The notes below the pieces were generated by a model. The model had not been told where the DNA came from, did not search any database, and saw nothing but the letters and a program-made list of their open reading frames with translations. 42,992 nucleotides of DNA from the IMG/VR virus record IMGVR_UViG_3300022181_000118, positions 1-42,992 of that record; one strand, 5' to 3'. The position numbers and the translations under genes are program-made. Source of the stretch: a virus. Lineage: Duplodnaviria; Caudoviricetes. This document shows positions 10,731 through 34,786 of this stretch, piece by piece (position 1 is the stretch's first letter; each line of letters starts with the position of its first letter).

Positions 10731-10765
10731 GTCCTTTAATGATGAACAATCAACTATCATTTTTG
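10731..10765 (+). promoter_or_regulatory. GTCCTT-N21-nAnnTTTG promoter, copy 1
   Basis: GTCCTTT at 10731, CATTTTTG at 10758-10765; 35-nt span identical to four other copies. Confidence 0.7.
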
Positions 10766-10769
10766 CAAA

Positions 10770-10837
10770 ACAGGAGATCCGCGAGGACCGGGATGAAAGC
10801 AGACATGTCAGTAACCCCGGCCCCCGGTCTTTATCCC
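10770..10837 (+). ncRNA. Putative structured small RNA or leader upstream of the antirepressor
   Basis: GC-rich island: TCC-GCGA-GGA hairpin; GACCGGG/CCCGGTC stem followed by TTT; alternative GGGATGAAAG/CTTTATCCC pairing. Confidence 0.4.
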
Positions 10838-10855
10838 ATATAAACTTATAAGATT

Positions 10856-11650
10856 ATGAATCAGAAGTACAATTATGATGGGAATGACGTTACCTTCTAT
10901 TTTGGGAATGGTGACGTTATGATTAACGCAACAGAGATGGCCCGGCCATTTGGTAAGCGTGCCGGTGAGTGGCTTAGACTGCCCTCAACAATGAACTTTC
11001 TCTCCGCCTTGGAAGCTATGGGAAAATCCCATAGGTCCAATTTAGTGTCCACAGAGAACGGAATTGGAACCTGGATGCATGAGGATGTCGCGCTTGAATT
11101 TGCCCGATGGCTCTCTCCGATGTTTGCCATCTGGTGTAATGATCGAATCAAGGAGCTGGCCAAGTACGGATTTACAGCCTCTGAGACAAAGATTGAACAG
11201 CTAGTTTCCAATCCGGAGCTGCTGATATCTCTTGCTACTCAGCTGCAGAACGAGAGAAGAGAAAAAAATATGATGCTCCAGCAGAATATGGAGCTAAAAG
11301 AGGTTATTCATTCACAGCAGCCAAGGGTAAGGTTCTCTGAAGCAGTAGAAGCATCATCTACATCAGTATTGGTGAGTGATTTAGCTAAAATTCTCACACA
11401 AAAAGGTGTTGAAATAGGCCAGAACAGACTCTTCAAGATCCTTCGTAGTCGAGGGTATTTACTTAGTAAGGGCGATTATTGGAATCAGCCATCTCAAAAA
11501 GCTATGGAGCAGGGGTTATTCCAGATTAAAAAGCAAACAATTCTAAAACCTGACGGATCTACATTGACTACATCAACGCCAATGGTTACGGGTCGTGGTC
11601 AGGTTTATTTCATTAATAAATTCCTTAAAGAAAACTTTATCACAGTATGA
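10856..11650 (+). CDS. KilA-N domain phage antirepressor with KilAC/ANT C-terminus
   Basis: INATEMARPFGK..WL, GTWMHEDVALEFARWLSP (KilA-N); LAKIL.Q.G..IGQNRLF..VTGRGQVYF (ANT). Confidence 0.92.
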   Translation: MNQKYNYDGNDVTFYFGNGDVMINATEMARPFGKRAGEWLRLPSTMNFLSALEAMGKSHRSNLVSTENGIGTWMHEDVALEFARWLSPMFAIWCNDRIKELAKYGFTASETKIEQLVSNPELLISLATQLQNERREKNMMLQQNMELKEVIHSQQPRVRFSEAVEASSTSVLVSDLAKILTQKGVEIGQNRLFKILRSRGYLLSKGDYWNQPSQKAMEQGLFQIKKQTILKPDGSTLTTSTPMVTGRGQVYFINKFLKENFITV

Positions 11651-11922
11651 GTCCTGTTGTCGCAATAGTGCTAATGATTGGAATCTGCTGGATAACACTT
11701 GCATTAACATGTTTTATGAATACAAAGAAAAGCAGAGTAAGAAGAGAGCTGAAAGAGGCGCTTGAAAATTGCTGGTTTGTGTCAGATAGTGACAAAGACA
11801 AGGCGATAGAGTTGGTTAAATCAAAATTCCCGAGAACAAAATTCTCATTCAAAACTGATTGGCAGCGAACTCAAAAAAACACGATTACGTACGCCAGAGT
11901 AAAGGCGATTATTAATCAATAA
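11647..11922 (+). CDS. Hypothetical protein with N-terminal TM helix
   Basis: 91 aa; ATGA overlap. Confidence 0.6.
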   Translation: MSPVVAIVLMIGICWITLALTCFMNTKKSRVRRELKEALENCWFVSDSDKDKAIELVKSKFPRTKFSFKTDWQRTQKNTITYARVKAIINQ

Positions 11923-11943
11923 TTAACTAAAAACAACTTTAAA

Positions 11944-12186
11944 ATGGAAATTAAACTAGGTGAAAAAGTAAAAGACATCGTTACCGGAATGGAAGGAATT
12001 GCAACAGCAAGAGTTGAATATTTAAACGGTTGTGTTCAATACTGCGTTAGACCTCCTATAGATAAGGATGGAAAACTTCAGGAGTGTATGTACATAGATG
12101 TTCAACAACTTGAAGTCATTGGAGAAGGTGTTACAGTTGGGTCTGTTAGCACAGGTGGCCCTCAAAGAGACTGTCCAAAAGTATAA
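11944..12186 (+). CDS. Hypothetical phage protein (small beta-barrel-like)
   Basis: LGEKVKD..TG..GIA.AR..YLNGC.QY.V.P pattern. Confidence 0.7.
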   Translation: MEIKLGEKVKDIVTGMEGIATARVEYLNGCVQYCVRPPIDKDGKLQECMYIDVQQLEVIGEGVTVGSVSTGGPQRDCPKV

Positions 12187-12205
12187 AGTACTTTGGATAA
12201 ATAAT

Positions 12206-12307
12206 GGAGAGAGTGATGAAACTGGTAGCCATGCCTATGTTGAATAGGTGAAGGAAATAATTCTAGGTAGAAATACTTCGTGCAGGTTCGACTCCTGTCT
12301 CTCTCCC
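12206..12307 (+). tRNA. Non-canonical or degenerate tRNA-like gene (class II-like; anticodon ambiguous, TTG or TGA)
   Basis: GGAGAGAG/CTCTCTCC acceptor stem; D-arm ATG-AAACTGGTAGC-CAT; CCTAT/ATAGG anticodon stem; ~30-nt variable arm; GCAGG-TTCGACT-CCTGT T-arm. Confidence 0.75.
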
Positions 12308-12334
12308 AAATTTTTCATAAATGCCGATTATAAT

Positions 12335-12538
12335 ATGAGAGATATTAAAACAACAATGTACATAATCGTTGATAAGCGTGGTACAGGATATTTGCCAACG
12401 CTAAACTACAAAAGAGGCGATTGTATATCTGGGTTTCTCAGAGACTCTAAGGCAAGCTGGAGTGAGGCAAAAAAATCAGGTTGGAAGTGCAAAAAAGTAG
12501 ATGTAACAATATCCTCTGCTACTCATTATTGGCAGTAA
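12335..12538 (+). CDS. Hypothetical protein (67 aa; start revised from 12248)
   Basis: In-frame ATG at 12335 lies downstream of the tRNA-like element. Confidence 0.55.
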   Translation: MRDIKTTMYIIVDKRGTGYLPTLNYKRGDCISGFLRDSKASWSEAKKSGWKCKKVDVTISSATHYWQ

Positions 12539-12585
12539 TAAGTGTGTAATAATGAATTTTTTAAGAAATCAATAAGAACAAAGCT

Positions 12586-12930
12586 ATGAAGACTTTAGAA
12601 TCAATAAAATCTCAGATTGTTGAGATTGAGAAAAAGTATTTGTTGACAAAAGATAAAAAAGAGCAGAGGGCTTTCTTAAGTGCTCACTCAAAGCTTAAGC
12701 CTGTTTTACTAATCCTTTCAACAGGAATTTCTGAAGAGTCACTAAGAAGGCAGCTTTCCAATGAAGATCAGCGATTAAGTGTTTTCAAACAGAGAATTGA
12801 AAACGAGATAGGTGGACTACCTGAAGGGAAGACATTTTTAAGCTATGAAATTCGCAAAAGGCTTGAGAATGAATACAACATCAAAGATATTGAGTCAAGG
12901 ATTGAGCAATTAAGGGACATTCTGAACTAG
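12586..12930 (+). CDS. Hypothetical coiled-coil protein
   Basis: 114-aa ORF immediately before rep. Confidence 0.65.
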   Translation: MKTLESIKSQIVEIEKKYLLTKDKKEQRAFLSAHSKLKPVLLILSTGISEESLRRQLSNEDQRLSVFKQRIENEIGGLPEGKTFLSYEIRKRLENEYNIKDIESRIEQLRDILN

Positions 12931-12936
12931 TTTATT

Positions 12937-14310
12937 ATGACAATACATTTACCATTTATTGATACAGACAATCATTTTGCAGCTATTATGGCTCTATATG
13001 ATGCGAAATCGGCCGATTACAACGGTATTGTGGCTATTGAGAGGGATAATGGGGATAAGACCAGGAACTTCCTTAAAAGTGCTCACAGAGAGCTTTACCG
13101 GGAGCTGATTTTTTCTCTGAAAGCAAAGATGACTTCAGCCAGGTACATTATGCGAGACGCTCCGGAACTGCTTAAAATGGAGGCTTTTTCGCCCCTTGTG
13201 TTGAACACAAACCGCAAAAGGATGTCTGAGTTCACTAAGAAGTCCGAAGCTACCATTTACCGCCTTACAGAACGTTTAATTGATGCCAAGATTATTCTTG
13301 AGAAGGTAAATCATGGCACTCAGAGAGATTACGAGCTCTTCCTAAATCCCGAAATGGTGCCGGTTTCTGATCATAAAAACGAGGATTTTAATCCACTGCT
13401 CTACATTTTGAAAAACTCAATAGATACAACGATTCAGCAGACATTGCGTTCAATTTGCACGCCATGTTCTAGTAACTTGAACAATCTTAATAAAAAAGTA
13501 ATCACAGGGAACTTTCAGGAACACGAAGAGGTATCGGCTCCGCCGATTGATTTCAATGAACAGACTGGAACTCTCTACGGGAACACAGGAGATCCGCGAG
13601 GGTCGCTCGAGGAGCTCCTCGCCCTGAACATGGCAAAAATTAACACATCGGAAAGTAAGGGAGTGACAACAAACGCTTTCGGAGTGCAGATTTTGCCAAA
13701 AGAGTGTGCAAAAATTAACACATTGGACGAATATGGCCAGAAGATAGAGGCACTTCGAAGGAAGGAAGAGGAGAGAACCAGACGTTATGCCATTATGTTG
13801 GTTGAATTTGTGATATCTGTGCTCTTTAACAGCAGATCTATTTACAAATCAGAGAGGAATAAAGCCTACAAATTTGCAGAATACTACTTCGATAAATTCA
13901 ATTCTGAAACGGATTGTGCAAAAGCCCTGGAACAATACCGGCAACGCGTCCGGTTAGTTGAGCGATATCTTGAAAACAACAAAGCTTTCTCATTCGACAA
14001 CATCTGGCCGGCCAGGTACATGGATCCTGAAAATTATACATCCGGTTTTATCATGACTCAGAAATGGATGAAGAAGCATCAGGACTACCTGGAGCTGCAG
14101 TATAAAACTCGCAAGATCCGGACAGAGCAGCAGATACTTGCATACGCATTGAAACGCTTTGAGCAGAAATATAGAAACGAATCGGCATTTACCTACTGGA
14201 GATCTTATCTGCTGAATAAAGCTCCGGGAAAGATCCAGGAATATGAGCACGCTGCAGTAGCAATATTGCAACAAAAGTCAAGAAAATCGCATAAAACGTC
14301 AATTAATTAG
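12937..14310 (+). CDS. Putative phage replication initiator (winged helix)
   Basis: NRKRMSEFTKKSEATIYRLTERLIDAKII..NHG..YEL wHTH; central linker carrying DNA repeats, as in lambda O. Confidence 0.6.
   Translation: MTIHLPFIDTDNHFAAIMALYDAKSADYNGIVAIERDNGDKTRNFLKSAHRELYRELIFSLKAKMTSARYIMRDAPELLKMEAFSPLVLNTNRKRMSEFTKKSEATIYRLTERLIDAKIILEKVNHGTQRDYELFLNPEMVPVSDHKNEDFNPLLYILKNSIDTTIQQTLRSICTPCSSNLNNLNKKVITGNFQEHEEVSAPPIDFNEQTGTLYGNTGDPRGSLEELLALNMAKINTSESKGVTTNAFGVQILPKECAKINTLDEYGQKIEALRRKEEERTRRYAIMLVEFVISVLFNSRSIYKSERNKAYKFAEYYFDKFNSETDCAKALEQYRQRVRLVERYLENNKAFSFDNIWPARYMDPENYTSGFIMTQKWMKKHQDYLELQYKTRKIRTEQQILAYALKRFEQKYRNESAFTYWRSYLLNKAPGKIQEYEHAAVAILQQKSRKSHKTSIN
13585..13727. repeat. Putative replication origin inside rep
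   Basis: 17-mer ACAGGAGATCCGCGAGG (13585-13601); perfect palindrome CGAGGAGCTCCTCG (13608-13621); direct repeats GCAAAAATTAACACAT at 13633-13648 and 13708-13723. Confidence 0.5.
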
Positions 14311-14327
14311 CCTAAAACGGAAATAAT

Positions 14328-14576
14328 ATGTCAAACTTCGGAAACGAGCAATCAAAATTTAAGATGGTCATTTACATGAAATCAGGGGATCGGCATACAT
14401 TTTATTCCCTTATCAACGAAGAGAAAAAGAGTAATGAAGTGGCATTAAGGGGAATGAAACGCCGGCTTCTTGAGAATAGGTTCAAGGGTAAGTATCAAAC
14501 TGCTTTAATCTATGACAGATTTGCAGATAAGCTTTTAGAAAAATTTATAAACGGTAAAATGGAGGTAGCTTTATGA
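14328..14576 (+). CDS. Hypothetical protein
   Basis: 82-aa ORF coupled to the next gene. Confidence 0.65.
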   Translation: MSNFGNEQSKFKMVIYMKSGDRHTFYSLINEEKKSNEVALRGMKRRLLENRFKGKYQTALIYDRFADKLLEKFINGKMEVAL

Positions 14577-15052
14577 TTACAACAAAGATTCAGATTCTGC
14601 AGCATCTAGCTGAGTACATCATCGGTAAGTATGGTGCCAGGATGAATAATCCGGTTTCTTTACCTGATAACATTCCATTGTATCATTTCGTATGGGATAT
14701 AATGAGTAAGAGACCAGATGACAAGCAGATTGATTCTGGTAATGTTGAGCTTGTTTTGCCGGATAGGAGAGAGGGTAAGAATCCTCGTGTTTACAACTAT
14801 ATATCAGATCGGGGAGTAAGAGTCATACAATACAAGATAGCTACAATGTTGTGGACTGAGCTTCATGAAGATTTGGACCATAATAAGCATCGTTTGGGAA
14901 TTGAATACATCGATACTGTGCATATCTTCTGCAACAAGTATAATATCACCGGTATAAGTGAAGATGCCATGTTAAAGAACTATTACAGGTGGAGAAATGC
15001 AACCAGGCGCAGAAATAAGGAAAAACGAAATTACTTCCGCCAAAATTCTTAA
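14573..15052 (+). CDS. Hypothetical basic protein, candidate late-gene activator
   Basis: Last early gene before the structural module; C-terminal FCNKYNI..ISEDAMLKNYYRWR HTH-like segment; function is a positional inference. Confidence 0.5.
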   Translation: MITTKIQILQHLAEYIIGKYGARMNNPVSLPDNIPLYHFVWDIMSKRPDDKQIDSGNVELVLPDRREGKNPRVYNYISDRGVRVIQYKIATMLWTELHEDLDHNKHRLGIEYIDTVHIFCNKYNITGISEDAMLKNYYRWRNATRRRNKEKRNYFRQNS

Positions 15053-15098
15053 AAAATATTTGTACGACTTGGTGTATCATTTTGTCCGTTTTGAGTGA

Positions 15099-15131
15099 CA
15101 AAACTGCATCAAAACTGCATCAAAAGTGCAC
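15099..15131. repeat. Three tandem 11-bp repeats (CAAAACTGCAT, CAAAACTGCAT, CAAAAGTGCAC)
   Basis: Read directly at 15099, 15110 and 15121. Confidence 0.8.
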
Positions 15132-15153
15132 ACTCTTTAAAAATCAGATAGTT

Positions 15154-15540
15154 ATGAATGAAAATTTTGACCAATTAGGCAATAAAATATCAATTGTACC
15201 CCTAAGAGATGTTCAAAGTATCTCTGGGAACAATTTCACCTTATCAACTTATCAGAACTTAAGATCATATTTTACAATGAATGATCTGAACCTGGATCAA
15301 AAATCAAATCCAACAGATGCCGGAGATCTTTACCTCCAGAATTTAACTGCCATCGTAAAAAAAAATGATGAATTATTGAGGTTTAGAGGTCAGGACCTGA
15401 TGATCATCCTCTATTCACTAAAAGATAAAACTTTTGTTTGGGGATCAAAAGAATTCCCGGTAAAATGCAAAATAACCCCTCAGGTTTCAACTTCTAGTGT
15501 TGAGCTGACAAGATCCTCTCCATTCCCTTTGGAATTTTAG
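15154..15540 (+). CDS. Small tail-tube-like paralogue (128 aa; start revised from 15082)
   Basis: In-frame ATG at 15154; visible similarity to the core of 18598..19572. Confidence 0.55.
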   Translation: MNENFDQLGNKISIVPLRDVQSISGNNFTLSTYQNLRSYFTMNDLNLDQKSNPTDAGDLYLQNLTAIVKKNDELLRFRGQDLMIILYSLKDKTFVWGSKEFPVKCKITPQVSTSSVELTRSSPFPLEF

Positions 15541-15545
15541 ATTCA

Positions 15546-15580
15546 GTCCTTTACACATATATATGAGTGCAGCATATTTG
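15546..15580 (+). promoter_or_regulatory. GTCCTT-N21-nAnnTTTG promoter, copy 2 (head genes)
   Basis: GTCCTTT at 15546, CATATTTG at 15573-15580. Confidence 0.75.
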
Positions 15581-15594
15581 TAAAAACAACAGAT

Positions 15595-16506
15595 ATGCTG
15601 CAATCGTATTTGGACCAAACGCTCAGCTTCTTTCGCTTAGCGCCTTTAATAATTTCTAAAGACTCTTTCGACGAGTTTCTAGTAAGGTTTGATTGTTTCG
15701 TGAAAAACAACTCAGAACCGGAGAAGTATTCAGAATTTGTCAACGAACAGATTAAATCATACCAGGAGAATAATGAATCAATCTTCATAACATCAGATTA
15801 TGAAGATAGATCTATACCCGAAAGTATAGCAGTTCATTTCATTGATGGTTTCATAGCCCATGATAAAAACTGGTGGTACTGTTCAACAGAGCAGTTGCTT
15901 GAGGATATAGAGACGGCAGAGGAAAATGAAAAGATCATCGCTCATGTTTTAATCATCAATTCTCCAGGAGGCGAAAGCTACGGACTTGAGAAGGTAAATG
16001 AGAGATTGCGTTCTCTGGATAAACCCATCCTGGTTGCAGTCAAGAAAATCATGGCCAGTGCAGGTGTTTACATAGGATCTGCCGGTGACAGAGTTTATTG
16101 CCTTAATAAGTTTGACATAGTAGGATCAATTGGAACAATGATCTCTTATTGGGATAGCAAGAAGGCTCTCGAACAGTATGGTTATATTCTGAGAGAGGCC
16201 TATGCAACAAAGAGTACTCATAAGAATAAGCTTACTAATGACGTGAGCGAAGGCAAAACAGAGGAATTCATTAAACGGTTTCTGGATCCGGTGCAAGAAG
16301 AATTTGAAAAAGCCATTCGAGCATCCCGACCAAACACATCCAAGGCTCCTGAAGAGTCACATCTCTTCAATGGAGAGATCTACTACGCTGAAGAAGCAAT
16401 GCAATATGGACTCATTGATGGGATCAAGAACATTGATGAAATTCTTCAGGAAGCATTTAAACTCGGTAAAGAGTATCAGACAAGAAGCAAAATTTCAATC
16501 ACTTAA
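15595..16506 (+). CDS. S49 (SppA/ClpP-like) prohead protease
   Basis: INSPGG, MASAGVYIGS, VGSIG motifs; directly upstream of the capsid gene. Confidence 0.88.
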   Translation: MLQSYLDQTLSFFRLAPLIISKDSFDEFLVRFDCFVKNNSEPEKYSEFVNEQIKSYQENNESIFITSDYEDRSIPESIAVHFIDGFIAHDKNWWYCSTEQLLEDIETAEENEKIIAHVLIINSPGGESYGLEKVNERLRSLDKPILVAVKKIMASAGVYIGSAGDRVYCLNKFDIVGSIGTMISYWDSKKALEQYGYILREAYATKSTHKNKLTNDVSEGKTEEFIKRFLDPVQEEFEKAIRASRPNTSKAPEESHLFNGEIYYAEEAMQYGLIDGIKNIDEILQEAFKLGKEYQTRSKISIT

Positions 16507-16517
16507 TTTCTAAAGAC

Positions 16518-18512
16518 ATGTTTAAAAAGAATTTTCAAAAGGTTCTGAAAGCCCTGGGCTTGATGGACAAAGCCAAGAGCAAAACTCTCTCGAAAGAGGA
16601 CTGGACCAAGATTCAGGCTTCCTATAAGGAAACCTTTGGTCGTGATTTTTACGCTGATGCCAATGAGGACAGCGAGGATGCAGACAAAGCTAAAGCTTAC
16701 GATTATGCAATGGAAATCATTTCATCTGCAGATGTAGATCCGGAAGATGAGGATGAGAACAATGAAGGAGATGAAGAGGGAGACGACACAAACGCCGACT
16801 CAGATGAGGATGGTGATAAAGAAGATCAGCCAAAAAAGAAAACCAAGAACCTTGGTAAAATTGTCAAGAAGATTGTGAGCAGCAATAAGAAACTTACAGA
16901 GCAGGTGCAATCACTTGTCTCAAAAGCTACTCCTGATCAACCTCTTGACACAAGAAGGGTTGCAATCGTTGGATTAGGTGGTTTCCATACACCAAAATAT
17001 GCTTTCGGTATCGAGCATCCGATGTTCGCTGCAGAGAAACGCTGGAACCAGATTCTTATGCATGGAAAAAACATCTCCCTGCAGTCAGATCCGGACGAGG
17101 AGTCATTCGAAAGCTTCCAGAAGGAATTTAAATCCTATGGTAAGGATATTTGTAAGAGGATGCAGGAGCTCAAGAAAAATGGCCTTCTTAACGTTAAATC
17201 TCTCAATACAGATGGTTCAATTGACTATTCTGGTCTTGCTGATGCAGGTCTTGGTACTCAGTTCCTGGTAAGAAGACAGGATGCCCTTATCGCAAGGATT
17301 ATTGCATTGCCGAATGTATTTAACGTATTCCCTCTTCGCTCCAATATTCAGGATGGTGATATAATCACTAATGCATTCTTTGGTGAATTCTCACAGGCTT
17401 ACCAGGAAGGCGAGATTTCAAAAGGTGGAATGGATCTGGTTCCTGAAAAGGCAAAGGTTCATGACGTGATGTTCAAGACCCTCTTCAAATCAATGAAGTG
17501 GATTGAGACTCAGTATATCGGTTATCTTAACACTGCCGGCAGTGACCCTATAAAATGGCAGATGATTGAGTGGATGATCCTTAACATCGCTACTGTTCTC
17601 AATAATGAGCGCAATGTGAGAACTGTTATGGGTCATAGAATTGAGCCAACAGTAGGAGTTAAAGGTCATTATCTTAACTCATCAACCGGTGTTATTCACA
17701 GGCTGTTGTCGTATATCGAAAACAACCAGATCCTTCCATTTGATGATTCAGATTTTGCATCTTATACTGCACAGACAATGGTTTCCGTTGTTGAATCATT
17801 TGCAGAAGAGGTAAACCAGCTTCTTCCAAATCTGTTGGGTAAAGCAATTTACCTCAACCTGAAGCACAGACCTTGGTATCTTCAGAGTTATCGTGCCACT
17901 TATGGCAAGGATATGGACTTTGCCGGTCCGGATGAGATGAAGCTGATGAACTACGATATTCCAATCGTATGGGTTCCAAACATGGGCAATCTGAAGTTCA
18001 TGTGGATTACTGAACTTGGTAACGTTCAGGCACTGGAAAACATCCCTGGTGAGATGTACAACACATATTTTGAGCGTCGTCTGGAGAGTGTGTGGGGATT
18101 CTCAACATGGAAAGAAGGTACAGCTGCTGCTTATGCAGGCAAACCATATGCTACACAAGCAGCTCTCTTGGCTGCAGGAAGAAAAGAACAGGCCATCTTC
18201 ATTAACAAGCCGGTGACTACGCTTGCTGCTGATGCAACAACTGTTGATGGCTCGAAGAACATATGGTTCCTTACTCAAGCCAATACTGCTGATGTTGAGC
18301 CTGCAAACCTCTCAATCACCGACATAATAAATCCTGAAGAGGGTGTTGTGTACAAAATTGAGATTGGTTCAGCCGACAATCCTCAGCATATTGCCAAGGC
18401 TGGCAAGTTCTCTCTTATCTCTGAGGCATGGGAGCCTACAGAAGTTGGTGAGTGGATCAAACTGATCTACGATAAGGCAAACTCAAAGTTCCTTGAGGTT
18501 GCTCGCGGATAA
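16518..18512 (+). CDS. Major capsid protein with N-terminal scaffold-like region and C-terminal accessory domain
   Basis: Follows the protease and is followed by a terminator; acidic/coiled-coil N-terminus; capsid-like core (SQAYQEG..KGG). Confidence 0.75.
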   Translation: MFKKNFQKVLKALGLMDKAKSKTLSKEDWTKIQASYKETFGRDFYADANEDSEDADKAKAYDYAMEIISSADVDPEDEDENNEGDEEGDDTNADSDEDGDKEDQPKKKTKNLGKIVKKIVSSNKKLTEQVQSLVSKATPDQPLDTRRVAIVGLGGFHTPKYAFGIEHPMFAAEKRWNQILMHGKNISLQSDPDEESFESFQKEFKSYGKDICKRMQELKKNGLLNVKSLNTDGSIDYSGLADAGLGTQFLVRRQDALIARIIALPNVFNVFPLRSNIQDGDIITNAFFGEFSQAYQEGEISKGGMDLVPEKAKVHDVMFKTLFKSMKWIETQYIGYLNTAGSDPIKWQMIEWMILNIATVLNNERNVRTVMGHRIEPTVGVKGHYLNSSTGVIHRLLSYIENNQILPFDDSDFASYTAQTMVSVVESFAEEVNQLLPNLLGKAIYLNLKHRPWYLQSYRATYGKDMDFAGPDEMKLMNYDIPIVWVPNMGNLKFMWITELGNVQALENIPGEMYNTYFERRLESVWGFSTWKEGTAAAYAGKPYATQAALLAAGRKEQAIFINKPVTTLAADATTVDGSKNIWFLTQANTADVEPANLSITDIINPEEGVVYKIEIGSADNPQHIAKAGKFSLISEAWEPTEVGEWIKLIYDKANSKFLEVARG

Positions 18513-18527
18513 CACTTGAAACAATCC

Positions 18528-18553
18528 GGCAGGGGCTCCGGTCCCTGCCTTTT
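18528..18553 (+). terminator. Intrinsic terminator after the capsid gene
   Basis: GGCAGGGGC-TCCG-GTCCCTGCC-TTTT. Confidence 0.75.
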
Positions 18554-18597
18554 GTTATCAAATCAATACATTTTCAATAGAGTAAATATTATTTCAT

Positions 18598-19572
18598 ATG
18601 AAAAAGTTTAAACAGAAATTTAATAAAAGGCTAGCGCTGATATCTTCTCTGATAATTGCGCTCATTGGCCTTTTCATTTTTTCCATGGCCGTAGATTCAG
18701 GCATGGGTGTTCTTGAAAGCATAGGCATTACCGGTTCAGGAGTGACTTATTGCGTTATGGCTGCTGTTGGCAACATCGGCAGAGTAACCGATAGAGAGAC
18801 TGCTGGAGCTCAGATATCATCACGAATTTGGCTAATTGCTTTGGATCAGGTTGATGATACGGTTCAGTTTCCGAGGCCAAATGCTAATGGTGAAGTAGGA
18901 ACTGTTCCGCTTAAGGCCGGAGAATATATGCATTACTTTGAAGCTATTGATGACTCTCTTGATGATAAATCTACTGGCAGTAAAGGAGATATAACTACTG
19001 CAGTGACAAATTCATTTACCTTTATTATGGGTGGGTACAGAAGATCGCTGCAGAAATTTATGGAGGATCACGCTGGAGACAGGTTTATAATCATCTATCA
19101 GATGGCAAGTGATGCTCAGTATCACATTGTAGGTAATGAGCTCAAGCCAATGATTCTAAAATCCTTTGATAGAACAAATAATAAAGAGTCCAGAAGTGTT
19201 TCCTTCACTTTTGAGAACAACAGTTTCCTTCAGCCACAGAAATATGTTGGAGCAATTGTAAAAGAAGCACCGGCAGCCATTGCTGCTAATGCCACCGAGC
19301 TTGCTTTCACCTCGGCCAACCAGTACATCACAAGTGCTGCTAATGCTGCAGCGACAACAATCGCTACTATCTCAGGGTTAGCTGCTGCTGATGAAGGTAG
19401 GATTATCGAAATTGTCGGAGGAGGTGGTGCCAATCCAACACACATAGACTCTATTGCTGCTATTGTCCTCAAGAGTGATGCAACCTGGATTGCAAATGCA
19501 GGAAGCAGATTAACTCTTAAAGTGCTCGATTCAGAGACATTGGTAGAGGGGTCAAGAGTTCAGACAGCGTAA
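18598..19572 (+). CDS. Putative major tail (tube) protein with N-terminal signal/TM leader and C-terminal accessory domain
   Basis: Beta-rich core following the capsid gene; basic-hydrophobic N-terminus; alternative ATG at 18757. Confidence 0.6.
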   Translation: MKKFKQKFNKRLALISSLIIALIGLFIFSMAVDSGMGVLESIGITGSGVTYCVMAAVGNIGRVTDRETAGAQISSRIWLIALDQVDDTVQFPRPNANGEVGTVPLKAGEYMHYFEAIDDSLDDKSTGSKGDITTAVTNSFTFIMGGYRRSLQKFMEDHAGDRFIIIYQMASDAQYHIVGNELKPMILKSFDRTNNKESRSVSFTFENNSFLQPQKYVGAIVKEAPAAIAANATELAFTSANQYITSAANAAATTIATISGLAAADEGRIIEIVGGGGANPTHIDSIAAIVLKSDATWIANAGSRLTLKVLDSETLVEGSRVQTA

Positions 19573-19597
19573 AGTTTCGTTTTTAGGTTAATTATTT

Positions 19598-19632: not shown

Positions 19633-19636
19633 CTTT

Positions 19637-19671
19637 GTCCTTCGGCTACGGGTAAAGGATAGATAAGTTTG
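19637..19671 (+). promoter_or_regulatory. GTCCTT-N21-nAnnTTTG promoter, copy 3 (packaging operon)
   Basis: GTCCTTC at 19637, TAAGTTTG at 19664-19671; directly after a terminator. Confidence 0.75.
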
Positions 19672-22061: not shown

Positions 22062-22690
22062 ATAAACTAGAGAGATTACAGACACTTGATCCTGATGTTT
22101 TGCAGAACTTCCTGAAGACGCGCAGAAGTGCAGCGCTCCCGGAAGATCTGCAGGAATATATTATCAAGATTGATGCTGTACCCTCAATAGTACATCATGT
22201 TGGAGCTAACATGACAAGGGTCGTGCGATCTCTCCAGAAGCAGTTTCCTCATCTCAATTTCAGCACAGCAAGAGAGATCTACTACGACGCAATGAACTTC
22301 TTTCATATCGATGATAGTATTACTGTAGATGCCTGGGATAACTATTATGCAGATAAGATGGAGGATCTGGCTCGCTTAAGTATTGCAATGGATAAGATTG
22401 ATTCTGCTAAAAGATGTTACGATAAGGCGCACGAATTCAGAACCAAAGCTGCAGAGAGGATTAAAGTGACAGACTGGCAAGTGCCGGTATTCATAATAAC
22501 AAACAAAGTCAAGCATACTGATCTTGGATTTGAGAAGAAGAGCCTTCATGACATTGTGCGAAAAGATGAAGATGGATTCTACATCAATCTTATCAACTCT
22601 CTTGAGACGACTGATAAAGAAAAGAAGAGACTCATCCGGGAAGCAAACATTGTTGATGTTGAACACGAGGAGGTAATGGAAGATGAATAA
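22058..22690 (+). CDS. Hypothetical packaging-operon protein (alternative TerS candidate)
   Basis: 210 aa; overlaps the terL start; acidic C-terminal tail. Confidence 0.55.
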   Translation: MNKLERLQTLDPDVLQNFLKTRRSAALPEDLQEYIIKIDAVPSIVHHVGANMTRVVRSLQKQFPHLNFSTAREIYYDAMNFFHIDDSITVDAWDNYYADKMEDLARLSIAMDKIDSAKRCYDKAHEFRTKAAERIKVTDWQVPVFIITNKVKHTDLGFEKKSLHDIVRKDEDGFYINLINSLETTDKEKKRLIREANIVDVEHEEVMEDE

Positions 22691-24389
22691 TGAACTGGAA
22701 TATAATAGCTTCGAAGAGCTGTATCTAAACAACATGCAGATGCTGGTTCAGATTGTGGACTGTAACACTGTAATTGTTGAAGCCGGTCGGGGTACCGGTA
22801 AGACTGAAGGTGTGACAAGTCGCAGGACAATCAGTGTTGCCAAGGATCTCCCCAGGGAAACATCAGTCCTGGCACATAAGTCCTATGTTGCTTTGCTGGC
22901 CAACGTAGTTCCAAACATTATTGCTTTCTATTCTGAACCCAGGGGAGAAGAACAGAAGCCTCTACTGAGAGAAGGAATTGACTATGTAGTTGGAGAGAGA
23001 ACTTTACCAGGACACTTTCAAAAACCTCGCTATGCACCGGAGCATCCGGAACATACCATTTTCTTTGCCAATGGCCATAATATACGCCTGGTCGCAACTG
23101 ATCAGCAGGAGTCTATCGCCGGGTCCAACATAGTGCATATCTTTTTGGAAGAGATGAAACTTAACAAAGGAGCCAAATTAAAAAGCCGGCTTATCCCTGC
23201 AATGCGCGTTGGCAGGCTCACAAAGAATATCTCTCAAACACAGGCATCTATTTATTATCAGGGAGTAACAGGTGTCTCAGATACTGCTAGAGTATCCCTA
23301 GGAGAAGACTCTTGGTTTCAGGAATATGAGGAGAATATGAATGAAGAGCTTATTGCTGAAATTGTAACTCTTTCATTGTACGTAAACGAGGCTCTGTATA
23401 ACATTCATATTGGAAAGAATGTAGATGCAATGCAAAAACGCCTGGCAAAATATACACCCATCTTAAGCCGGGCGCGTAAGGCAGCAACATACTATATGCG
23501 CGTTTCAACCTTCATTAACCGGGAGGTACTTGGCCCCCAATATTTTGCTACACAAAAGAAGTTGCTCACTCCATCTGAGTTTCTGACATCAATATGTTCT
23601 GTCCGGGAGAAGAAAGCTGAGAACATGTTTGTTGCCAATTTTGATGAGCTAATACACACATTTGATGATTCATATAAATATGAGTCGATAATGAAGTTTA
23701 ATCTTAAGGACAACTTCAGGATTACTTCAGAATATCTGAAACACTACAATCCAGATGAAAAATTAGAGTTGGGGTTTGACCCCGGTTCCTTTGCTTCATT
23801 TGTTGTTGCCCAAGAAAACAGAAAAACAAACGAATACAGGATTTTGAAAGAACACTATGTTTTTTCTCCAAAAGACCTCCCAGAATTAGCCAGGGAGTTT
23901 AATCAGTTTTGGTGCAACCGCAGAAACAGAAACATAGACTTGTATTATGACCGGGCCGGCAACCAACGAAAGCCACAAAAACGACAGCACGAAACAGATG
24001 CAAAAGAGTTAAAGCACGAACTGGAGAAGTATGGCTGGAGGGTGCGTTTGATGAGTCTGAACCAAAGAACCATTTTCCACTGGGAGCTCTATAAGTTGAT
24101 GCTAAAACTGTTTGCACCTGATGATAAGACTATTCCAAAAATTATGATTGATGCCAATGAATGTCCTAACCTTATTTCTTCAATTTATTCAGCACCAATT
24201 AAAAAAGGTTCTAATCCGATTGAGCTTGATAAGTCGAGCGAAGTTAAGTTGCCACTAAACCTTCAGGCCGGTTTATCCACTCAGATACCTTCAGGAATGT
24301 TTTATCTGCTTTGGGGCAAATTTGAAAAATTCCTGATTATGGCAAAAGGTGGAAATTTCGGCAATATTCCAAGCAATATGACAGCCTAA
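22683..24389 (+). CDS. terL: Terminase large subunit
   Basis: Walker A AGRGTGKT; Walker B HIFLEE; nuclease motifs LGFDPG and YYDRAGN. Confidence 0.88.
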   Translation: MNNELEYNSFEELYLNNMQMLVQIVDCNTVIVEAGRGTGKTEGVTSRRTISVAKDLPRETSVLAHKSYVALLANVVPNIIAFYSEPRGEEQKPLLREGIDYVVGERTLPGHFQKPRYAPEHPEHTIFFANGHNIRLVATDQQESIAGSNIVHIFLEEMKLNKGAKLKSRLIPAMRVGRLTKNISQTQASIYYQGVTGVSDTARVSLGEDSWFQEYEENMNEELIAEIVTLSLYVNEALYNIHIGKNVDAMQKRLAKYTPILSRARKAATYYMRVSTFINREVLGPQYFATQKKLLTPSEFLTSICSVREKKAENMFVANFDELIHTFDDSYKYESIMKFNLKDNFRITSEYLKHYNPDEKLELGFDPGSFASFVVAQENRKTNEYRILKEHYVFSPKDLPELAREFNQFWCNRRNRNIDLYYDRAGNQRKPQKRQHETDAKELKHELEKYGWRVRLMSLNQRTIFHWELYKLMLKLFAPDDKTIPKIMIDANECPNLISSIYSAPIKKGSNPIELDKSSEVKLPLNLQAGLSTQIPSGMFYLLWGKFEKFLIMAKGGNFGNIPSNMTA

Positions 24390-24644: not shown

Positions 24645-24679
24645 GTCCTTTATCGACAGAGATTACAATGAGATATTTG
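24645..24679 (+). promoter_or_regulatory. GTCCTT-N21-nAnnTTTG promoter, copy 4 (portal/tail operon)
   Basis: GTCCTTT at 24645, GATATTTG at 24672-24679; only 4 nt separate it from the ATG. Confidence 0.75.
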
Positions 24680-24683
24680 AACT

Positions 24684-25004
24684 ATGGAAACGATTGATGG
24701 ATACAAAGCACTTAAAACTCTGGAGGATATAACCAGGGCAGGGGGGACGTTCACTATCTCATTCTTTAAGTGCTCTCGCTCAAAGAGAGAAGCTTCAACA
24801 AAGCTGAGGACTATATCAGGGTGCAGGACCAGAGCTCAGATGCCTCATGAGAAGTGGAATATTGATGGGGACAACTACTTCCTATTTGAGTGTTCTGAAG
24901 GGAATAAGGCATGTTATAAGTACCTAATCAGGTACATCGGCTTCCCCAGTGACAACTATAGATTAAAGAAAGTTAAATGGTTTAATAATGAAGAAGGGAA
25001 CTAA
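24684..25004 (+). CDS. Hypothetical protein preceding the portal
   Basis: 106 aa; overlaps the portal start. Confidence 0.7.
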   Translation: METIDGYKALKTLEDITRAGGTFTISFFKCSRSKREASTKLRTISGCRTRAQMPHEKWNIDGDNYFLFECSEGNKACYKYLIRYIGFPSDNYRLKKVKWFNNEEGN

Positions 25005-26472
25005 GTATGAATTGAACAGTCTGGGTTACGTTAAGGCCGGGCCGGACACATTCACCTATCAGATAGGTGAAACACTACATGAGGCACAGGAGCTCTTCTC
25101 TGACTCTATACAGAGCACAGGTAGAAGTAATGTGCAGCTTGTTAAGGTAGACAAGTTTAAGGTCTACCCTGCAGGTGCAAATAACCTTGAGCCTAATGAG
25201 CAGAAGGAGATGATTGCTTCTAACAGACTACTACCAGAACTTATTGAGAAGCAGATCCGCATGCTATATGGTACTGGTCCGGTTCTCTACATTACCAGGC
25301 GAAAGGGTAAGGATGTATGGAAGGAGTTTGTGGACCATACAGATATTCAGGACTGGCTTGATTCATGGCTGGAGAATGGCATGGCTGATGATTATAAAAC
25401 ATACTTTAATAAAGCCATTAGATCCTATTATTACGATGAGGGGGTATTCTCTAAATGGAGACTCTCTGCAGGTATAAGAATTGGGATTAAAAAGATTGCC
25501 GGATTGGAGCATGTTTCAAACTTAAGAGCAAGGCTTGCCACTACTGCTGATACAATTAACAGAGTGGATTTTGAAGACAATGAATTTAAGCACGTTATTA
25601 TAGGCAACTGGACACAACCAGGTAAGGAATATAAGGTCTACAATCGTTTCGATTATACAGATCCATTTGCTCATACAACTGCAGTCAGCTATTCGAAAAA
25701 CCCTAGTCATGGAGAAGAAATCTATGCATTTAACGTGTTTTTCAGAGGAATTAAAGCTTGGGTGATAGGCTCAAACAGAACTCCGGAATACATCAACAGT
25801 TTCCTTGAAAATGCTATATCTGCGAGGCTTCACATTATAATTCCAAATGCATGGGTACAGTCTAAGATAGAGATGCTTAAGGATATGTGTAATACAAATT
25901 CAGAGAGAAAAGCAGATAATCAATCTCTACTTGTGATTAAGTTTTCAGATACGGACGTGATGGATGTCGGCACTGAATACCATGAGGGTTTGATAGCTGA
26001 ATACACAACAAAAGAACTGCGTAAACTGGCCAACTATCTATCCGGAGCCGGCAAGAACCAGGGTAAATTGTATGCTTCATACAGCTTTACAAATAGTGAA
26101 GGTCAAGAGGAGCGTTGGAAAATTGAAGAGATTCCCAACAAATCCAAGGAGTATATTGAAGCTCATACAACCTATGATAAAAGAGCTGATGAGGTAATTA
26201 CTTCTGCAAAGGGTATTGATTCCTCAATTTCTAATATCTCGAAGGATGGAGTTATCAGCAAGTCCGGATCTGATGCGCATTACAATTACATGATATACCT
26301 GAATGGGCTTACCATTCCGGAGGATGTTGTTTGCCGGGACATCAATTTTGCCATTAAACTGAACTTTCCGGAAGCTTATAAAGCCGGTATCCGACTTGGT
26401 TTTTATCGCTCTGCAATTGAAAAACAACAGAATGTATCTGAAGATAACAGACTTACTAATACACAAGTATAG
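24988..26472 (+). CDS. Portal protein
   Basis: 494 aa after terL; G.NNLEP, LYGTGP, L.GAGKNQGK, KSGSD patterns; size and position. Confidence 0.7.
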   Translation: MKKGTKYELNSLGYVKAGPDTFTYQIGETLHEAQELFSDSIQSTGRSNVQLVKVDKFKVYPAGANNLEPNEQKEMIASNRLLPELIEKQIRMLYGTGPVLYITRRKGKDVWKEFVDHTDIQDWLDSWLENGMADDYKTYFNKAIRSYYYDEGVFSKWRLSAGIRIGIKKIAGLEHVSNLRARLATTADTINRVDFEDNEFKHVIIGNWTQPGKEYKVYNRFDYTDPFAHTTAVSYSKNPSHGEEIYAFNVFFRGIKAWVIGSNRTPEYINSFLENAISARLHIIIPNAWVQSKIEMLKDMCNTNSERKADNQSLLVIKFSDTDVMDVGTEYHEGLIAEYTTKELRKLANYLSGAGKNQGKLYASYSFTNSEGQEERWKIEEIPNKSKEYIEAHTTYDKRADEVITSAKGIDSSISNISKDGVISKSGSDAHYNYMIYLNGLTIPEDVVCRDINFAIKLNFPEAYKAGIRLGFYRSAIEKQQNVSEDNRLTNTQV

Positions 26473-26474
26473 AT

Positions 26475-28875: not shown

Positions 28876-29210
28876 TGATGGGAAAGAAGATTGGTTTTGC
28901 TGCTCGGAATGATGAGCCGGCTGATGAGGTTGGAGAAAAGGATAAAAGACCAAGGAAGGAGCCGGATCCATTGAGCTTTGAACTATTGGACAGCTTTTGT
29001 AGGAAATATATCCCTGCGGAGGATATTAAGCATGCAACCAACCAATTTACTACAGAGGAGATCACCAGGGCGATATCAATTTTTACAAGTGACAAATACA
29101 TTTCAAGTGGCCACGTTAAGAATGCAATGCTTCAAAAGGGATACAAGTATACTGTTGAAATAGAGTCTTTCAGGCTTGTTTTTAAATGGATTGTAAAGGA
29201 GAGATTATGA
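28875..29210 (+). CDS. Hypothetical protein
   Basis: 111 aa; coupled to genes on both sides. Confidence 0.6.
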   Translation: MMGKKIGFAARNDEPADEVGEKDKRPRKEPDPLSFELLDSFCRKYIPAEDIKHATNQFTTEEITRAISIFTSDKYISSGHVKNAMLQKGYKYTVEIESFRLVFKWIVKERL

Positions 29211-29599
29211 TATCAGGTGGTGCGATAAAAACTCAATATGTCCGGGAGATCCTTGAGAGGGATGCTAAGTTTATCAATGAAACTCAAGGTAAGGTTATCT
29301 CTGAGAATTTAAGGAGAGTATCAGGTCGCTTACTAAGGTCCATTTACAGAAAAGACTTCCAGATCCAGGCTGATGATAACAGAATGATGCTCCAATTTAA
29401 TTATTTGAGATATCTCCGTTTTCTGGACATTAAGAGCTCAATGGATAAATTTAAGAATAAGGAACTGCGTTCAAAATTGGCTCTTTATAACCGGGTAATT
29501 TATGGCCGACTGTATAATGAAACTCGCTCTGACATAAAGTATGGTTTGACAGAGCAGGTAAAGGAAAGGATAAGAACTGAACTCGAAAAAGCAATATGA
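29207..29599 (+). CDS. Putative neck/tail-completion protein (basic)
   Basis: ATGA overlap at 29207; SGRLLRSI and YLRFLD motifs; directly before the tape measure. Confidence 0.55.
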   Translation: MISGGAIKTQYVREILERDAKFINETQGKVISENLRRVSGRLLRSIYRKDFQIQADDNRMMLQFNYLRYLRFLDIKSSMDKFKNKELRSKLALYNRVIYGRLYNETRSDIKYGLTEQVKERIRTELEKAI

Positions 29600-29600
29600 T

Positions 29601-32600: not shown

Positions 32601-32741
32601 GATCATGATTTACTTACTGAACTCATTTCTCTTCTTCAATATTTAAAAAGAAATGGAGTAAAAGCAAAGGTGGTGCTCTCAGAACTGCAGGAGCAAACAG
32701 AACTTCAAGAATCAAGTAATAACCTAGCTTCAAAATCATGA
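29601..32741 (+). CDS. Tail tape measure protein
   Basis: 1046-aa coiled coil; ANPVGAVIAAIV and LGPIGGAIAA hydrophobic segments; G.E.GGY motifs. Confidence 0.9.
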   Translation: MGKLRDDEIKFILNLEAKGLQAEIGKSSAAVKKFAQENKALQAEMDLANKYLKGTERQMKSLERAGKTNTSAYQELKATYETTKNEIADYNERIIENSSLIDKNNEVIERSLKQLKLEEMTMSQLKNRAKDLQKQLDNTSLATDPEEYTKLQKELTQVDNRMWQLKNTGKGMMSQLSSIPGPAGQAVQSLMGMGKAMMALVANPVGAVIAAIVLVFMAFKKAINSSEEATFKLNQILAPLTKFLQFLLKILQDLVIGFLNFAEAAFSGISKLLEKLPFVGEKMKEINDTARDAIKLEKEKQALQRQEREWIVGRAQLENEVAKNRDKAYQRDKYSVQERLGFLDAALTAEKKISEESVRQAKEKLRIARIEAARAGNTSEVEKNLKELEAAVIQSETEMYEKTRGIQEKKNAFIAEERRNAQEAAKEAIQRQKDALDTQLNNLETNYNNRVSVIKKNGILMGQTDNEINLLTARQDKKFFQDRIQSLKEYLKKVKDEKLRSEILKKISDDELAIVESQKNSDNIKLGIIKDGLDKNLKLLDNAYSVQKLTFDNALADRKISQEQYDTLMLQLDEHTADSRVLIVQGYKDDVVALELETGALKEQAVIDANTLVIQAETEAADKRKAIYETITNSTLDFKQQFGLLTYDEEIKLQTKILEDVYKAKKEFLEKEGADTSALTAAYEQAKTNIALNSEQDRFNLRKSLNISNWAEEFEMQKLQLDQLHKAGMLSEEEYQAALKNMKMSQAKEYFDYYLGLGKNAVSAFMDAEISTMEATYDEKIAAAGDNNEEVERLEKEKAQKKLDIEKKYADVNFAIKVAEIIANTAVAIMQGFAQLGPIGGAIAAVLMGATGVAQVISANAERRKVKAMTLDSAGSSSPPQQRVVTGKEDGGYINVTREQDKKRFWAKKSKKSKGYFNEPSLLVSEGGTEFVANAAAVSNKSIKPFLDLINNAQEGGYVEQLNMDAILSAVKPSGKGYESGGYVQPQQTAPVIPNFGNQIDHDLLTELISLLQYLKRNGVKAKVVLSELQEQTELQESSNNLASKS

Positions 32742-34750
32742 GGATAATAACCGATAAAGGACAGTATGATCTGCCGGCCAATTTTGTACTTGAGATTGAG
32801 AGGAAAAATCCATTCTTTTCCAAGATTGGAGAAAAGAGCATTCCGGTTACTCTGCCAATTACTCCTAATAACTTAAAGATAATTGGTTATAATAAATTGG
32901 ATTCGAAGAACAAGCCAGTGACCTCTTTGGATGTACTCATTGAGGATGGAGTGACCAGACTATTCGCTAAGCAAGTAATCCATAAAACATCAAAAGAGGG
33001 GATATCCACAACATTTTATCCAAACATAGGAGCATTCTGGACAAAAATTAAGGATAAGAAGCTCAAGGATGTAATGGCCCAGTACACATATACAAGCGAG
33101 ACGTTGATGGCGGACCTTCAGAATTCGATGAAATCTACAGCTGGTTATGATTTCGTAGTCTTCCCCGTTGCATGTAATAATGGAAGTGATGACTATTTTA
33201 TATTGAATCAGACTGAAAATGTAGACTCCGGAGGAACTCCTTATCTAATTGGGCGCAAAGCCAGAACAATTAAAGAGGGTGATAAGGATACTGTTGTCCC
33301 GATTAACTATGGTATTACTCCGTTCTTAAGGCTACATTCGGCGTTGACAATGGTAGTGTCGCACTTTGGTTACTCAATTGATAATAACTTTCTATCAGGA
33401 TCTGCATTTAAAAATTTGTGTTTACTGAATAACTCTGCAGATACTGTCGTAATTAATAGAATTGAATATTCGCAGATTGTTCCAAATTTAAGTGTTCAGG
33501 ACCTTCTGGATGTGATTAGAGCAGCTTTTGGATGCGAATTTATTCCTGATGAGGCCAATAAAACTATTTCTATCTCATTTTTTAAGGATCAATTATCACA
33601 TATCCCATCAATTGATCTCTCAGGAGTAAAGGCAGGAGAGTTTGATTATGACTTACCATCTTTCGCTCAACTAGTCATAAATCAAGATGCCTCTATAGAA
33701 AACGCAGCTCCTGAGACAGATACTCTTGAAAAGTTTATTGATAAGTATAAATCAGTAGGAGCTGTAAATGAAGTTGAATGGGCAGACCAAGCCATTATCA
33801 GTAGATATAGTGCTGTTTTAAGACTCGCTGAAGGTCGCTTTTACTCAATAGAATTTGATGGCATAAACACCAGGAGAGAGCCGGTTAGCTCATCCTTTTT
33901 TAACTATAACAAAGGAGGTGATCTTACTTCTCAGGAGATTCAACTTAAAAACACAGCTGTACCGGTAGTTCAGGTTGGATCTATTCTTATGCCATTTGTT
34001 GGTAATATACTTCATGTCAATACAGCAATAAAAGAGAAGTCAGGTGAGACCAAAGAGGAGAAAAAAGACTCCTCAAAATTTGCTATGCTGTGTTTTGCGA
34101 AATTCGGGACAATAGGTAGCCTTCAGTACTCTTACGGTTCTCCATTTAATTACGATGACAAGGGAGTTAGGGATGGAGATTACAGTCTTCAGACATGGGG
34201 AGCAGATGGTATATTCCATAGGTTCTATAAGCAGATGGATTCATTTTATCGTCATTCTAATATGATTGTCTCTGTTGATATCCTTTTGACAGAAGCACAG
34301 AAAAATAATGTTTCTGAAATACAACCACTGCTTATTAAAAACCAGCTCTTACTTCCGGATTCAATAGCATATACAATTGGACGGAGGCTGCAAAAAAAGT
34401 GCTTGTTCAGGACTGTCAAGTTCTATGAGCCATATAATTTACAGGAGGAGCAATCAATTCCGTCCTTAATAACTGATCATACTTCATCAATTTTCTTTTG
34501 GGAGTATAATGATGATAGTGCAGCTGTGGTGCCTCAGACTCAAGGTTTGGATGAATACATATTTAGGCTGAATGGAGAAATAGTGCAGCCAGTAGCATCT
34601 CCAACTGCTCAGCAGTATGCGGATAGCCAAGATGGAGTCAAGTTTTATGAAAATACTGTATCAATAATTATTGAGCATTATGTGATGAGTAACTTCTTGG
34701 ATGAGTTTGAGAGAACGCTCTCTTACTGGTATACTGTAGCAGAAAAATAA
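32738..34750 (+). CDS. Tail tip/hub protein
   Basis: 670 aa, beta-rich, translationally coupled to the tape measure. Confidence 0.65.
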   Translation: MRIITDKGQYDLPANFVLEIERKNPFFSKIGEKSIPVTLPITPNNLKIIGYNKLDSKNKPVTSLDVLIEDGVTRLFAKQVIHKTSKEGISTTFYPNIGAFWTKIKDKKLKDVMAQYTYTSETLMADLQNSMKSTAGYDFVVFPVACNNGSDDYFILNQTENVDSGGTPYLIGRKARTIKEGDKDTVVPINYGITPFLRLHSALTMVVSHFGYSIDNNFLSGSAFKNLCLLNNSADTVVINRIEYSQIVPNLSVQDLLDVIRAAFGCEFIPDEANKTISISFFKDQLSHIPSIDLSGVKAGEFDYDLPSFAQLVINQDASIENAAPETDTLEKFIDKYKSVGAVNEVEWADQAIISRYSAVLRLAEGRFYSIEFDGINTRREPVSSSFFNYNKGGDLTSQEIQLKNTAVPVVQVGSILMPFVGNILHVNTAIKEKSGETKEEKKDSSKFAMLCFAKFGTIGSLQYSYGSPFNYDDKGVRDGDYSLQTWGADGIFHRFYKQMDSFYRHSNMIVSVDILLTEAQKNNVSEIQPLLIKNQLLLPDSIAYTIGRRLQKKCLFRTVKFYEPYNLQEEQSIPSLITDHTSSIFFWEYNDDSAAVVPQTQGLDEYIFRLNGEIVQPVASPTAQQYADSQDGVKFYENTVSIIIEHYVMSNFLDEFERTLSYWYTVAEK

Positions 34751-34751
34751 T

Positions 34752-34786
34752 GTCCTTTTAGAACGAGATTTCATTTGTGATTTTTG
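34752..34786 (+). promoter_or_regulatory. GTCCTT-N21-nAnnTTTG promoter, copy 5 (fibre/lysis genes)
   Basis: GTCCTTT at 34752, GATTTTTG at 34779-34786. Confidence 0.75.

Follow-up and report, generated by a model that had tools for sequence, protein, structure and literature searches.

How the operons of a temperate phage can be switched on together, when their start sites lack much of what the host promoter offers, is the question raised by IMG/VR virus record IMGVR_UViG_3300022181_000118 (Duplodnaviria; Caudoviricetes), a complete record of 42,992 bases that was analysed whole and is called the window here. Between positions 10731 and 34786, five copies of the hexamer GTCCTT each stand at one fixed distance from a degenerate form of the -7 box of Bacteroidota promoters, and a preliminary description of this DNA had proposed that they are a phage-specific promoter class read by a phage factor. 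Analysis of relatives reveals that GTCYTTY-N20-(weak -7 box) is a conserved, fixed-spacing signal at this phage's operon starts, and sequence comparison indicates that the five sites are very probably phage-specific promoters. A 159-residue protein encoded at 14573-15052 is the best candidate for their activator, and the whole model, in which GTCCTT is bound by a helix-turn-helix (HTH) domain of this protein and the host RNA polymerase with its primary σ is thereby recruited, is considered probable.

Five fixed-spacing sites in the window

GTCCTT occurs 14 times in the window, eight times on the + strand and six times on the - strand. Five of these copies, all on the + strand (10731, 15546, 19637, 24645 and 34752), match GTCCTT-N21-nAnnTTTG and end 34 nucleotides (nt) past the first G, which confirms the positions, the spacing and the intergenic placement that had been reported. 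When the spacer was widened to 20-22 there were still five matches, every one at 21. Shuffled versions of the window gave a mean of 0.14 sites, and none of 100 shuffles reached five; because this test was post hoc, an independent one was made in relatives (below).

All five sites lie on the + strand between long open reading frames (ORFs) of that strand. The first (10731-10765, -7 octamer CATTTTTG) begins at the base directly after the stop of 10533-10730 and is a likely middle promoter of the operon that runs from a KilA-N/ANT antirepressor to the candidate activator gene; some relatives have a box at the same place. The second (15546-15580, CATATTTG) starts 6 nt past 15082-15540 and is a likely late promoter of the head operon, which includes an S49 head protease recognized by Pfam (15595-16506). 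The third (19637-19671, TAAGTTTG), preceded by a hairpin and a T run, is a likely late promoter of a packaging block that encodes a methyltransferase and a terminase homologue (22683-24389). The fourth (24645-24679, GATATTTG) heads a block syntenic with portal-tail genes, and its transcript is likely leaderless because the ATG of 24684-25004 lies just 4 nt after the box. The fifth (34752-34786, GATTTTTG), which starts 2 nt past 32738-34750, is a likely late promoter of a block that encodes a tail protein and, further on, an M23 lysin; the listed ORF start at 34784 (TTG) overlaps this box, and translation more likely begins at the in-frame ATG at 34796. The block identities proposed earlier thus hold for the antirepressor, the head protease, the terminase homologue and the tail protein and lysin, but the labels 'replication' (12937-14310) and 'portal' (24988-26472) rest on position, neither ORF having a named family match. 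A start codon 4 nt past the -7 box (24679-24684 in the window) is seen in relatives too, where the gene is again the small pre-portal gene.

Host primary-σ promoters of the Bacteroidota consist of a -33 TTTG and a -7 TAnnTTTG separated by a spacer of variable length (PMC7366714, in part). None of the five window sites has a TTTG 17-23 nt upstream of its -7 box, where the host -33 element would lie, and only one of them has the full TAnnTTTG. An internal control is provided by 8714-8744 (+ strand), a canonical host-type TTTG-N19-TATATTTG without GTCCTT that stands before the early rightward operon and, alone among the window's 32 TAnnTTTG boxes, has a TTTG 17-23 nt upstream.

The box in related phages

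A profile of gene 14573-15052 retrieved 153 loci that fell into 77 groups, and once a locus near-identical to the window (L086) had been dropped, 76 loci (1.31 Mb) remained. With the gap defined as the number of nt between GTCCTT and TTTG, the TTTG core being part of the search pattern, 120 of the 248 coding-strand copies of GTCCTT have TTTG at gap 25, one at gap 24 and none at gap 26, and on the opposite strand only 1 of 347 copies has it at gap 25. An exact site is present in 57 of the 76 loci, and the only enriched variant is GTCTTT, found 16 times at gap 25 and 0-2 times at other gaps. Of the 120 sites, 96% carry C or T at the seventh position; the sequence of the spacer is unconstrained, and the -7 octamer has T first in 68%, A second in 66% (79/120) and the full TA in 42. 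The pattern nAnnTTTG, with its supposedly invariant A, is therefore too narrow, and the loss of the first T, which had been noticed in four of the five window sites, is correct there and fails as a rule for the family. The consensus is GTCYTTY-N20-(weak -7 box).

The placement of these sites is equally selective: the -7 box falls within a coding-strand ORF at 11 of the 120 gap-25 sites, compared with 51 of the 128 remaining copies of GTCCTT. Thirty-eight of the 120 precede the protease, 14 precede the small pre-portal gene (homologues of 24684-25004), and at 22 an ATG follows within 9 nt of the box. Of 65 relative loci, 59 have a relaxed form of the box before the head protease (controls, 0-1), and five of the six that miss it show a near variant by eye. 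Upstream of the candidate gene, a box occurs in 24 of the 53 relative loci with at least 7 kb of upstream sequence, as opposed to 2 at gap 24 and none at gap 26. Base frequencies over the 120 sites reveal no second half-site, so that the dyad symmetry of Mor/C sites is not seen. The 76 relative loci thus support the proposal of a fixed-spacing element at the -33 position, before operon starts and combined with weak -7 boxes, and a phage-restricted upstream box with these properties is what characterizes a phage activator-dependent promoter class. Many related phages from gut, oral and aquatic settings carry the box ahead of the corresponding genes.

Host genomes and clade-specific boxes

Five lysogen genomes contain 73 gap-25 matches, of which 25 fall between -6 and +28 kb of the candidate on its own strand and one in that interval on the opposite strand; the 47 found elsewhere are to be set against 64 matches at gap 24 and 40 at gap 26. 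Across 121 Bacteroidales genomes the strict pattern gave 42 matches, against 33 with a spacer one nt longer. In both sets there is no excess of the box outside prophages. The comparison of related prophages with host genomes that the preliminary description had recommended thus yields a gap-25 peak in the phage loci and none elsewhere in the hosts, and agrees with its claim of a phage-specific class. By eye, four similar matches in genome G128 stand ahead of phage-like ORFs. GTCCTT was also seen with TAnnTTTG at gap 26 in three similar copies in genome G116 (C8, C10, C35) and two in G058 (C38); no candidate homologue was found in the surrounding pieces examined.

More distant phages carry variants of the box. 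Leef_1 and Ingeline retain TGTCCTTT (6 and 5 sites) and Yong924-1 has CTGTCCTT (5 sites), with a -7 box in these three phages that often contains CTTG, ATTG or TTCG. In laban6-1, ATGTCACA (GTCACA) is found at five operon starts, and in 6H, ATGTCTTAA (GTCYTAA) at four, mostly one base closer (gap 24), while genomes G034 and G038 have GTCCTTT at gap 24, at four sites each. Distant homologues of the candidate are present in all of these variant-box phages, with E values from 6e-10 to 4e-4 prior to iteration. As the de novo 5-mer scan required TTTG[CT], the flavobacterial variants were seen by eye and then counted, and are post hoc except in two phages picked by protein alone (56-57% identity), L355 and L360, which have the same private boxes as their relatives laban6-1 (GTCACA) and 6H (GTCYTAA, mostly gap 24), at three sites each. 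A box that is uniform within one phage but not the same in all phages of one host genus suggests that its reader is encoded by the phage.

These observations bear on the alternative that a host factor alone reads the sites, be it an alternative or extracytoplasmic function (ECF) σ, an activator of the host, or the primary σ with tolerance for a variant -33 element. The -7 half is of host type, the box is almost identical over several host families, as would fit a conserved host protein, and the Bacteroidota have many ECF σs with unknown motifs (PMC7366714, in part). Such a factor is nevertheless improbable, since no host regulon emerges outside prophages, two Flavobacterium phages differ from one another in their box, and the box is missing from Mu-like phages of the same host species: two closely related Mu-like Porphyromonas gingivalis phages, like FCL-2, have neither the candidate nor an exact site.

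The candidate activator and its neighbours

When phages were instead collected by a scan for the DNA box alone, 121 stretches were obtained (about 760 estimated), of which 39 on long contigs were selected and 35 records searched. The candidate family profile matched 25 of the 35, four more came from a local search in 22 of the records, and the gene is accordingly present in 29 of 35 box-selected records (one weak) and in 16 of 17 that are near-complete. One contig noticed by its boxes (G003:C59) has a candidate homologue at E 4e-66. Among the six records without the candidate, three are fragments and three have one convincing site. In the opposite direction, from protein to DNA, the candidate gene was found in 7 of 121 genomes in an even genome sample; six of six distant copies precede a homologue of the 152-residue neighbour or of the protease, and in five of the six the first late gene is preceded by GTCCTTT at gap 25; the sixth has a variant seen by eye.

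The protein encoded at 14573-15052 (+ strand) has 62 close homologues, and its family comprises 579 clusters at E<=0.001. No named family was found for it in Pfam, PHROG, Atlas or PDB sequence searches, or for 56 homologues in Pfam and PHROG. Its structure was modelled with a pLDDT (predicted local distance difference test) of 91.9 as an N-terminal domain and a C-terminal three-helix, HTH-like domain (residues 90-154), which aligns at Z 4-5.2 to numerous DNA-binding domains of the HTH type and contains the conserved residues F119, K135 and R139. The one significant fold match is a 157-residue Leef_1 protein (template modelling score 0.70, E 3e-4), which agrees with gp39 in length, profile match and position. 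As a σ factor the protein finds no support, because there is no σ Pfam match and regions 2 and 4 were not recognized, its likeness to σ28 region 4 (Z 4.2) being that of a generic HTH; the four-cysteine zinc finger of the Ogr/Delta family is absent, the protein having a single cysteine, which is not conserved. The choice of this gene as best candidate, already made in the preliminary description, gains from the box-selected records that carry it, from the predicted HTH and from the clade-specific boxes.

Several more specific assignments were tried and rejected. The order strand-helix-helix, together with weak DndE matches (E 4-5), hinted at a ribbon-helix-helix N-terminus, which VIA-align did not back (best Z 3.7). 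A T4 gp33-like coactivator was likewise rejected (E 1.6; 1 of 56 members at E 0.09). A residue-base code appeared to link Y138 with GTCCTTT (23/25) and Q138 with GTCCTTC (28/30), but all Q rows form a single clade in a quick protease tree, hence one event, and the match was dropped as evidence. Predicting a complex between the homologue from the G001 prophage and region 4 of its host's primary σ gave a score of 0.00, which weighs neither way.

It is unlikely, slightly more so than a host factor, that another phage gene or a two-protein pair activates these promoters, with the 152-residue neighbour (15082-15540, + strand) acting alone or as cofactor. This gene is almost as widespread as the candidate (73 of 76 loci), lies upstream of the first late box of the window, and has a precedent in T4, which uses two proteins, MotA and AsiA. 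Yet it is a likely virion protein, if possibly a cofactor; its nearest named Atlas clusters are tail-tube families at 0.84, a weak lead. The other early genes of the window were found in at most 16 of the 76 loci, many of which are without the entire early region.

Proposed mechanism and its alternatives

The probable course of events under the favoured model of a 159-residue phage activator is as follows. Upon induction, the canonical host promoter at 8714-8744 would drive the early genes, and read-through would make the first activator. This protein would bind the asymmetric box, which spans about -39 to -33 and takes up the position of the host -33 TTTG; the box is placed there, over the host element, because the -7 box is centred at -7 (PMC7366714, in part). 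The bound activator may then compensate for the missing -33 element and the weak -7 box by contacting the primary-σ holoenzyme, and a stereospecific contact with σ region 4 or the flap is proposed because the spacing is rigid. The site at 10731, upstream of the activator gene, would create positive feedback, while the other four would switch on the head, packaging, portal-tail and tail-lysis operons together and would stay silent in a lysogen that lacks the activator.

Several observations weigh against this model. The presence of the candidate in the 76 loci is by construction, because the loci were chosen by it, and some 11 of the 35 box-selected records seem to belong to a single phage group, judging by their identical frame length. 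Three multi-box records are without the candidate; they also lack the neighbour and the protease, and are 51-88% complete. Co-occurrence does not separate the candidate from other core genes, which is explained by the presence of the neighbour in 73 of 76 loci and by the fact that whole clades share all genes; for the latter reason the clade variants do not single out 14573-15052 either. In the structure model the HTH match is generic (best Z 5.2), the N-terminal domain has no match in fold searches, and the agreement of Y/Q138 with T/C (51/55) reflects one branch with four exceptions. Feedback is not universal, since only 24 of 53 loci have the upstream box. Four RNA runs, all of them contigs and derived from no more than two samples, include parts of the head region and are uninformative on starts.

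The same arrangement could be read with the opposite sign, the box being an operator through which the 159-residue protein represses late promoters until late infection. A site over the -33 position could block σ region 4, and an HTH is silent on sign. There would be little to repress, as the sites have no -33 TTTG and mostly weak -7 boxes; repressors seldom need one exact spacing, and the gene sits at the end of a lytic early/middle operon, all of which makes repression very unlikely.

Equally poor odds attach to the idea that the protein is loaded at the box in the manner of lambda Q and acts on elongation by antitermination, or that the motif acts as RNA. The gene is in the Q position, last before the late genes, and the 10731 promoter is directly followed by a conserved, possibly structured leader (10769-10836, + strand), which begins ACAGGAGA and was recognized by alignment. 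This leader is kept in seven aligned sequences with different downstream genes; its predicted long stem shows two-sided change in 7 of 18 predicted pairs with a single-sequence z of -1.32, no match was found in Rfam, and it is possible that it is an attenuator or small RNA. But there are five promoters, and at some of them the ATG lies 4 nt past the box (within 9 nt at 22 of the 120 relative sites), which leaves no room for a pause and a terminator, and a spacer that is free in sequence and fixed in length is as expected for DNA contact on one face of the helix.

The LuxR-like gene (9051-9458, + strand), put forward earlier as an alternative reader, has a true HTH match (GerE, E 3e-5) and LuxR-like counterparts in flavobacterial relatives, but a profile seeded in part from the 24 candidate-bearing records themselves detected it in only 10 of these, and it went undetected in the other 14, which have boxes and include BT-TP2, phage016a and phage032a, so it is the least credible of the readers considered.

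Relation to known systems and significance

In the middle promoters of phage T4, the MotA box is read by MotA/AsiA together with the host σ. The sites described here resemble them in having an asymmetric phage box that replaces the host upstream element, a host-type downstream element, fixed spacing and, as predicted, use of the host σ; they differ in serving late operons and one middle operon, in belonging to a temperate phage, in having a Bacteroidota -7 box and in that no co-activator was identified. Mor/C of Mu and Ogr and Delta of P2 and P4 are late activators; Mor/C has a C-terminal HTH, and ogr is read from a late transcript. Common to these systems and the present one are a small phage activator (here a candidate) and dispersed late promoters without a good -35 equivalent. 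Unlike the dyad sites of Mor/C and Ogr/Delta, which lie upstream of -35, the box is asymmetric and overlaps the -33 position. With the primary-σ promoter of the Bacteroidota (PMC7366714, in part) the sites share the TTTG core of the -7 box and a place directly before the gene, but they have no -33 TTTG, the TA in only 42 of 120 cases, and an invariant instead of a variable spacer. MotA and AsiA gave no Pfam, PHROG or PDB sequence match and are not among the fold matches listed; no Mor or Ogr family match was found in Pfam or PHROG for the protein and 56 homologues, and Mor is not among the fold matches listed. The system would thus appear, by analogy, to work like T4 MotA, Mu Mor/C and P2 Ogr, and kinship to them is not detected.

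No description of late-gene activation in temperate Bacteroidota phages, or of this box, was found in the open-access literature, and the word 'promoter' is absent from the main text of PMC10367356, as far as available, and from that of PMC12694917. The analysis provides a consensus for the promoters, a family of 579 clusters as candidate activators and natural specificity variants, and its predictions are testable in a cultured, mitomycin-inducible phage of Bacteroides thetaiotaomicron (PMC12694917). If the model is correct, the box marks operon starts in largely unannotated genomes, could serve as a marker of prophage induction, and would offer orthogonal activator-promoter pairs for Bacteroides genetics. 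A bolder and rather doubtful extension is that the 159-residue protein founds a phylum-wide class of one-protein σ appropriators with a re-programmable promoter code (GTCCTTY, GTCACA, GTCYTAA). Its HTH would replace σ region 4 at -33 and its unmatched N-terminal domain would dock on the Bacteroidota polymerase, in which case hundreds of gut, oral and marine phages would share that code.

The phage and its relatives

Pfam and PHROG searches of the window identify an integrase, an S24 repressor, the KilA-N/ANT antirepressor, the S49 head protease, a tape measure protein and the M23 lysin. Its terminase shares 44-46% identity with the terminases of P. gingivalis phages 016a-032a, whose gene order the window follows. 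These phages appear to be the 17-strain group called Nixviridae in PMC10367356 (in part), a mapping that is inferred. BT-TP2, Duneviridae and Helgolandviridae are more distant relatives. The phage groups with the box system are Nixviridae (P. gingivalis), BT-TP2, Duneviridae (6H, laban6-1, Ingeline) and Helgolandviridae (Leef_1), which have in common terminase homology and the box or a variant of it; close relatives also share the order candidate-(152 residues)-protease-capsid. In BT-TP2, gp8, the counterpart of the candidate, carries the label 'transcriptional regulator', for which no support is given.

Other features concern cargo and virion genes. Adjoining the integrase, 1496-4084 is a fused HsdR-N and N6-methyltransferase gene that resembles type IIG restriction-modification cargo, and behind the repressor, on the - strand (4095-7779), lie DUF2188, a staphylococcal-nuclease homologue, a PBCV basic-adaptor protein and an exonuclease-BRCT fusion, also cargo. 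The likely major tail (18598-19572) and capsid (16518-18512) proteins have additional N-terminal parts, a hydrophobic signal-like stretch and an acidic scaffold-like region; signal peptides in virion genes of Nixviridae are noted in PMC10367356 (in part).

Two observations concern host labels. The 'Microcystis phage' Yong924-1 (L295, MZ447863.1) has Bacteroidota-type TTTG boxes, the GTCCTT box and a related terminase, which makes a member of the Bacteroidota its likely true host. Six loci (L086, L101, L105, L111, L127 and L151) sit in metagenome-assembled genomes labelled Clostridiaceae, Lachnospiraceae, Clostridium, Christensenella or Staphylococcus, and are likely mis-binned contigs of Bacteroidota phages.

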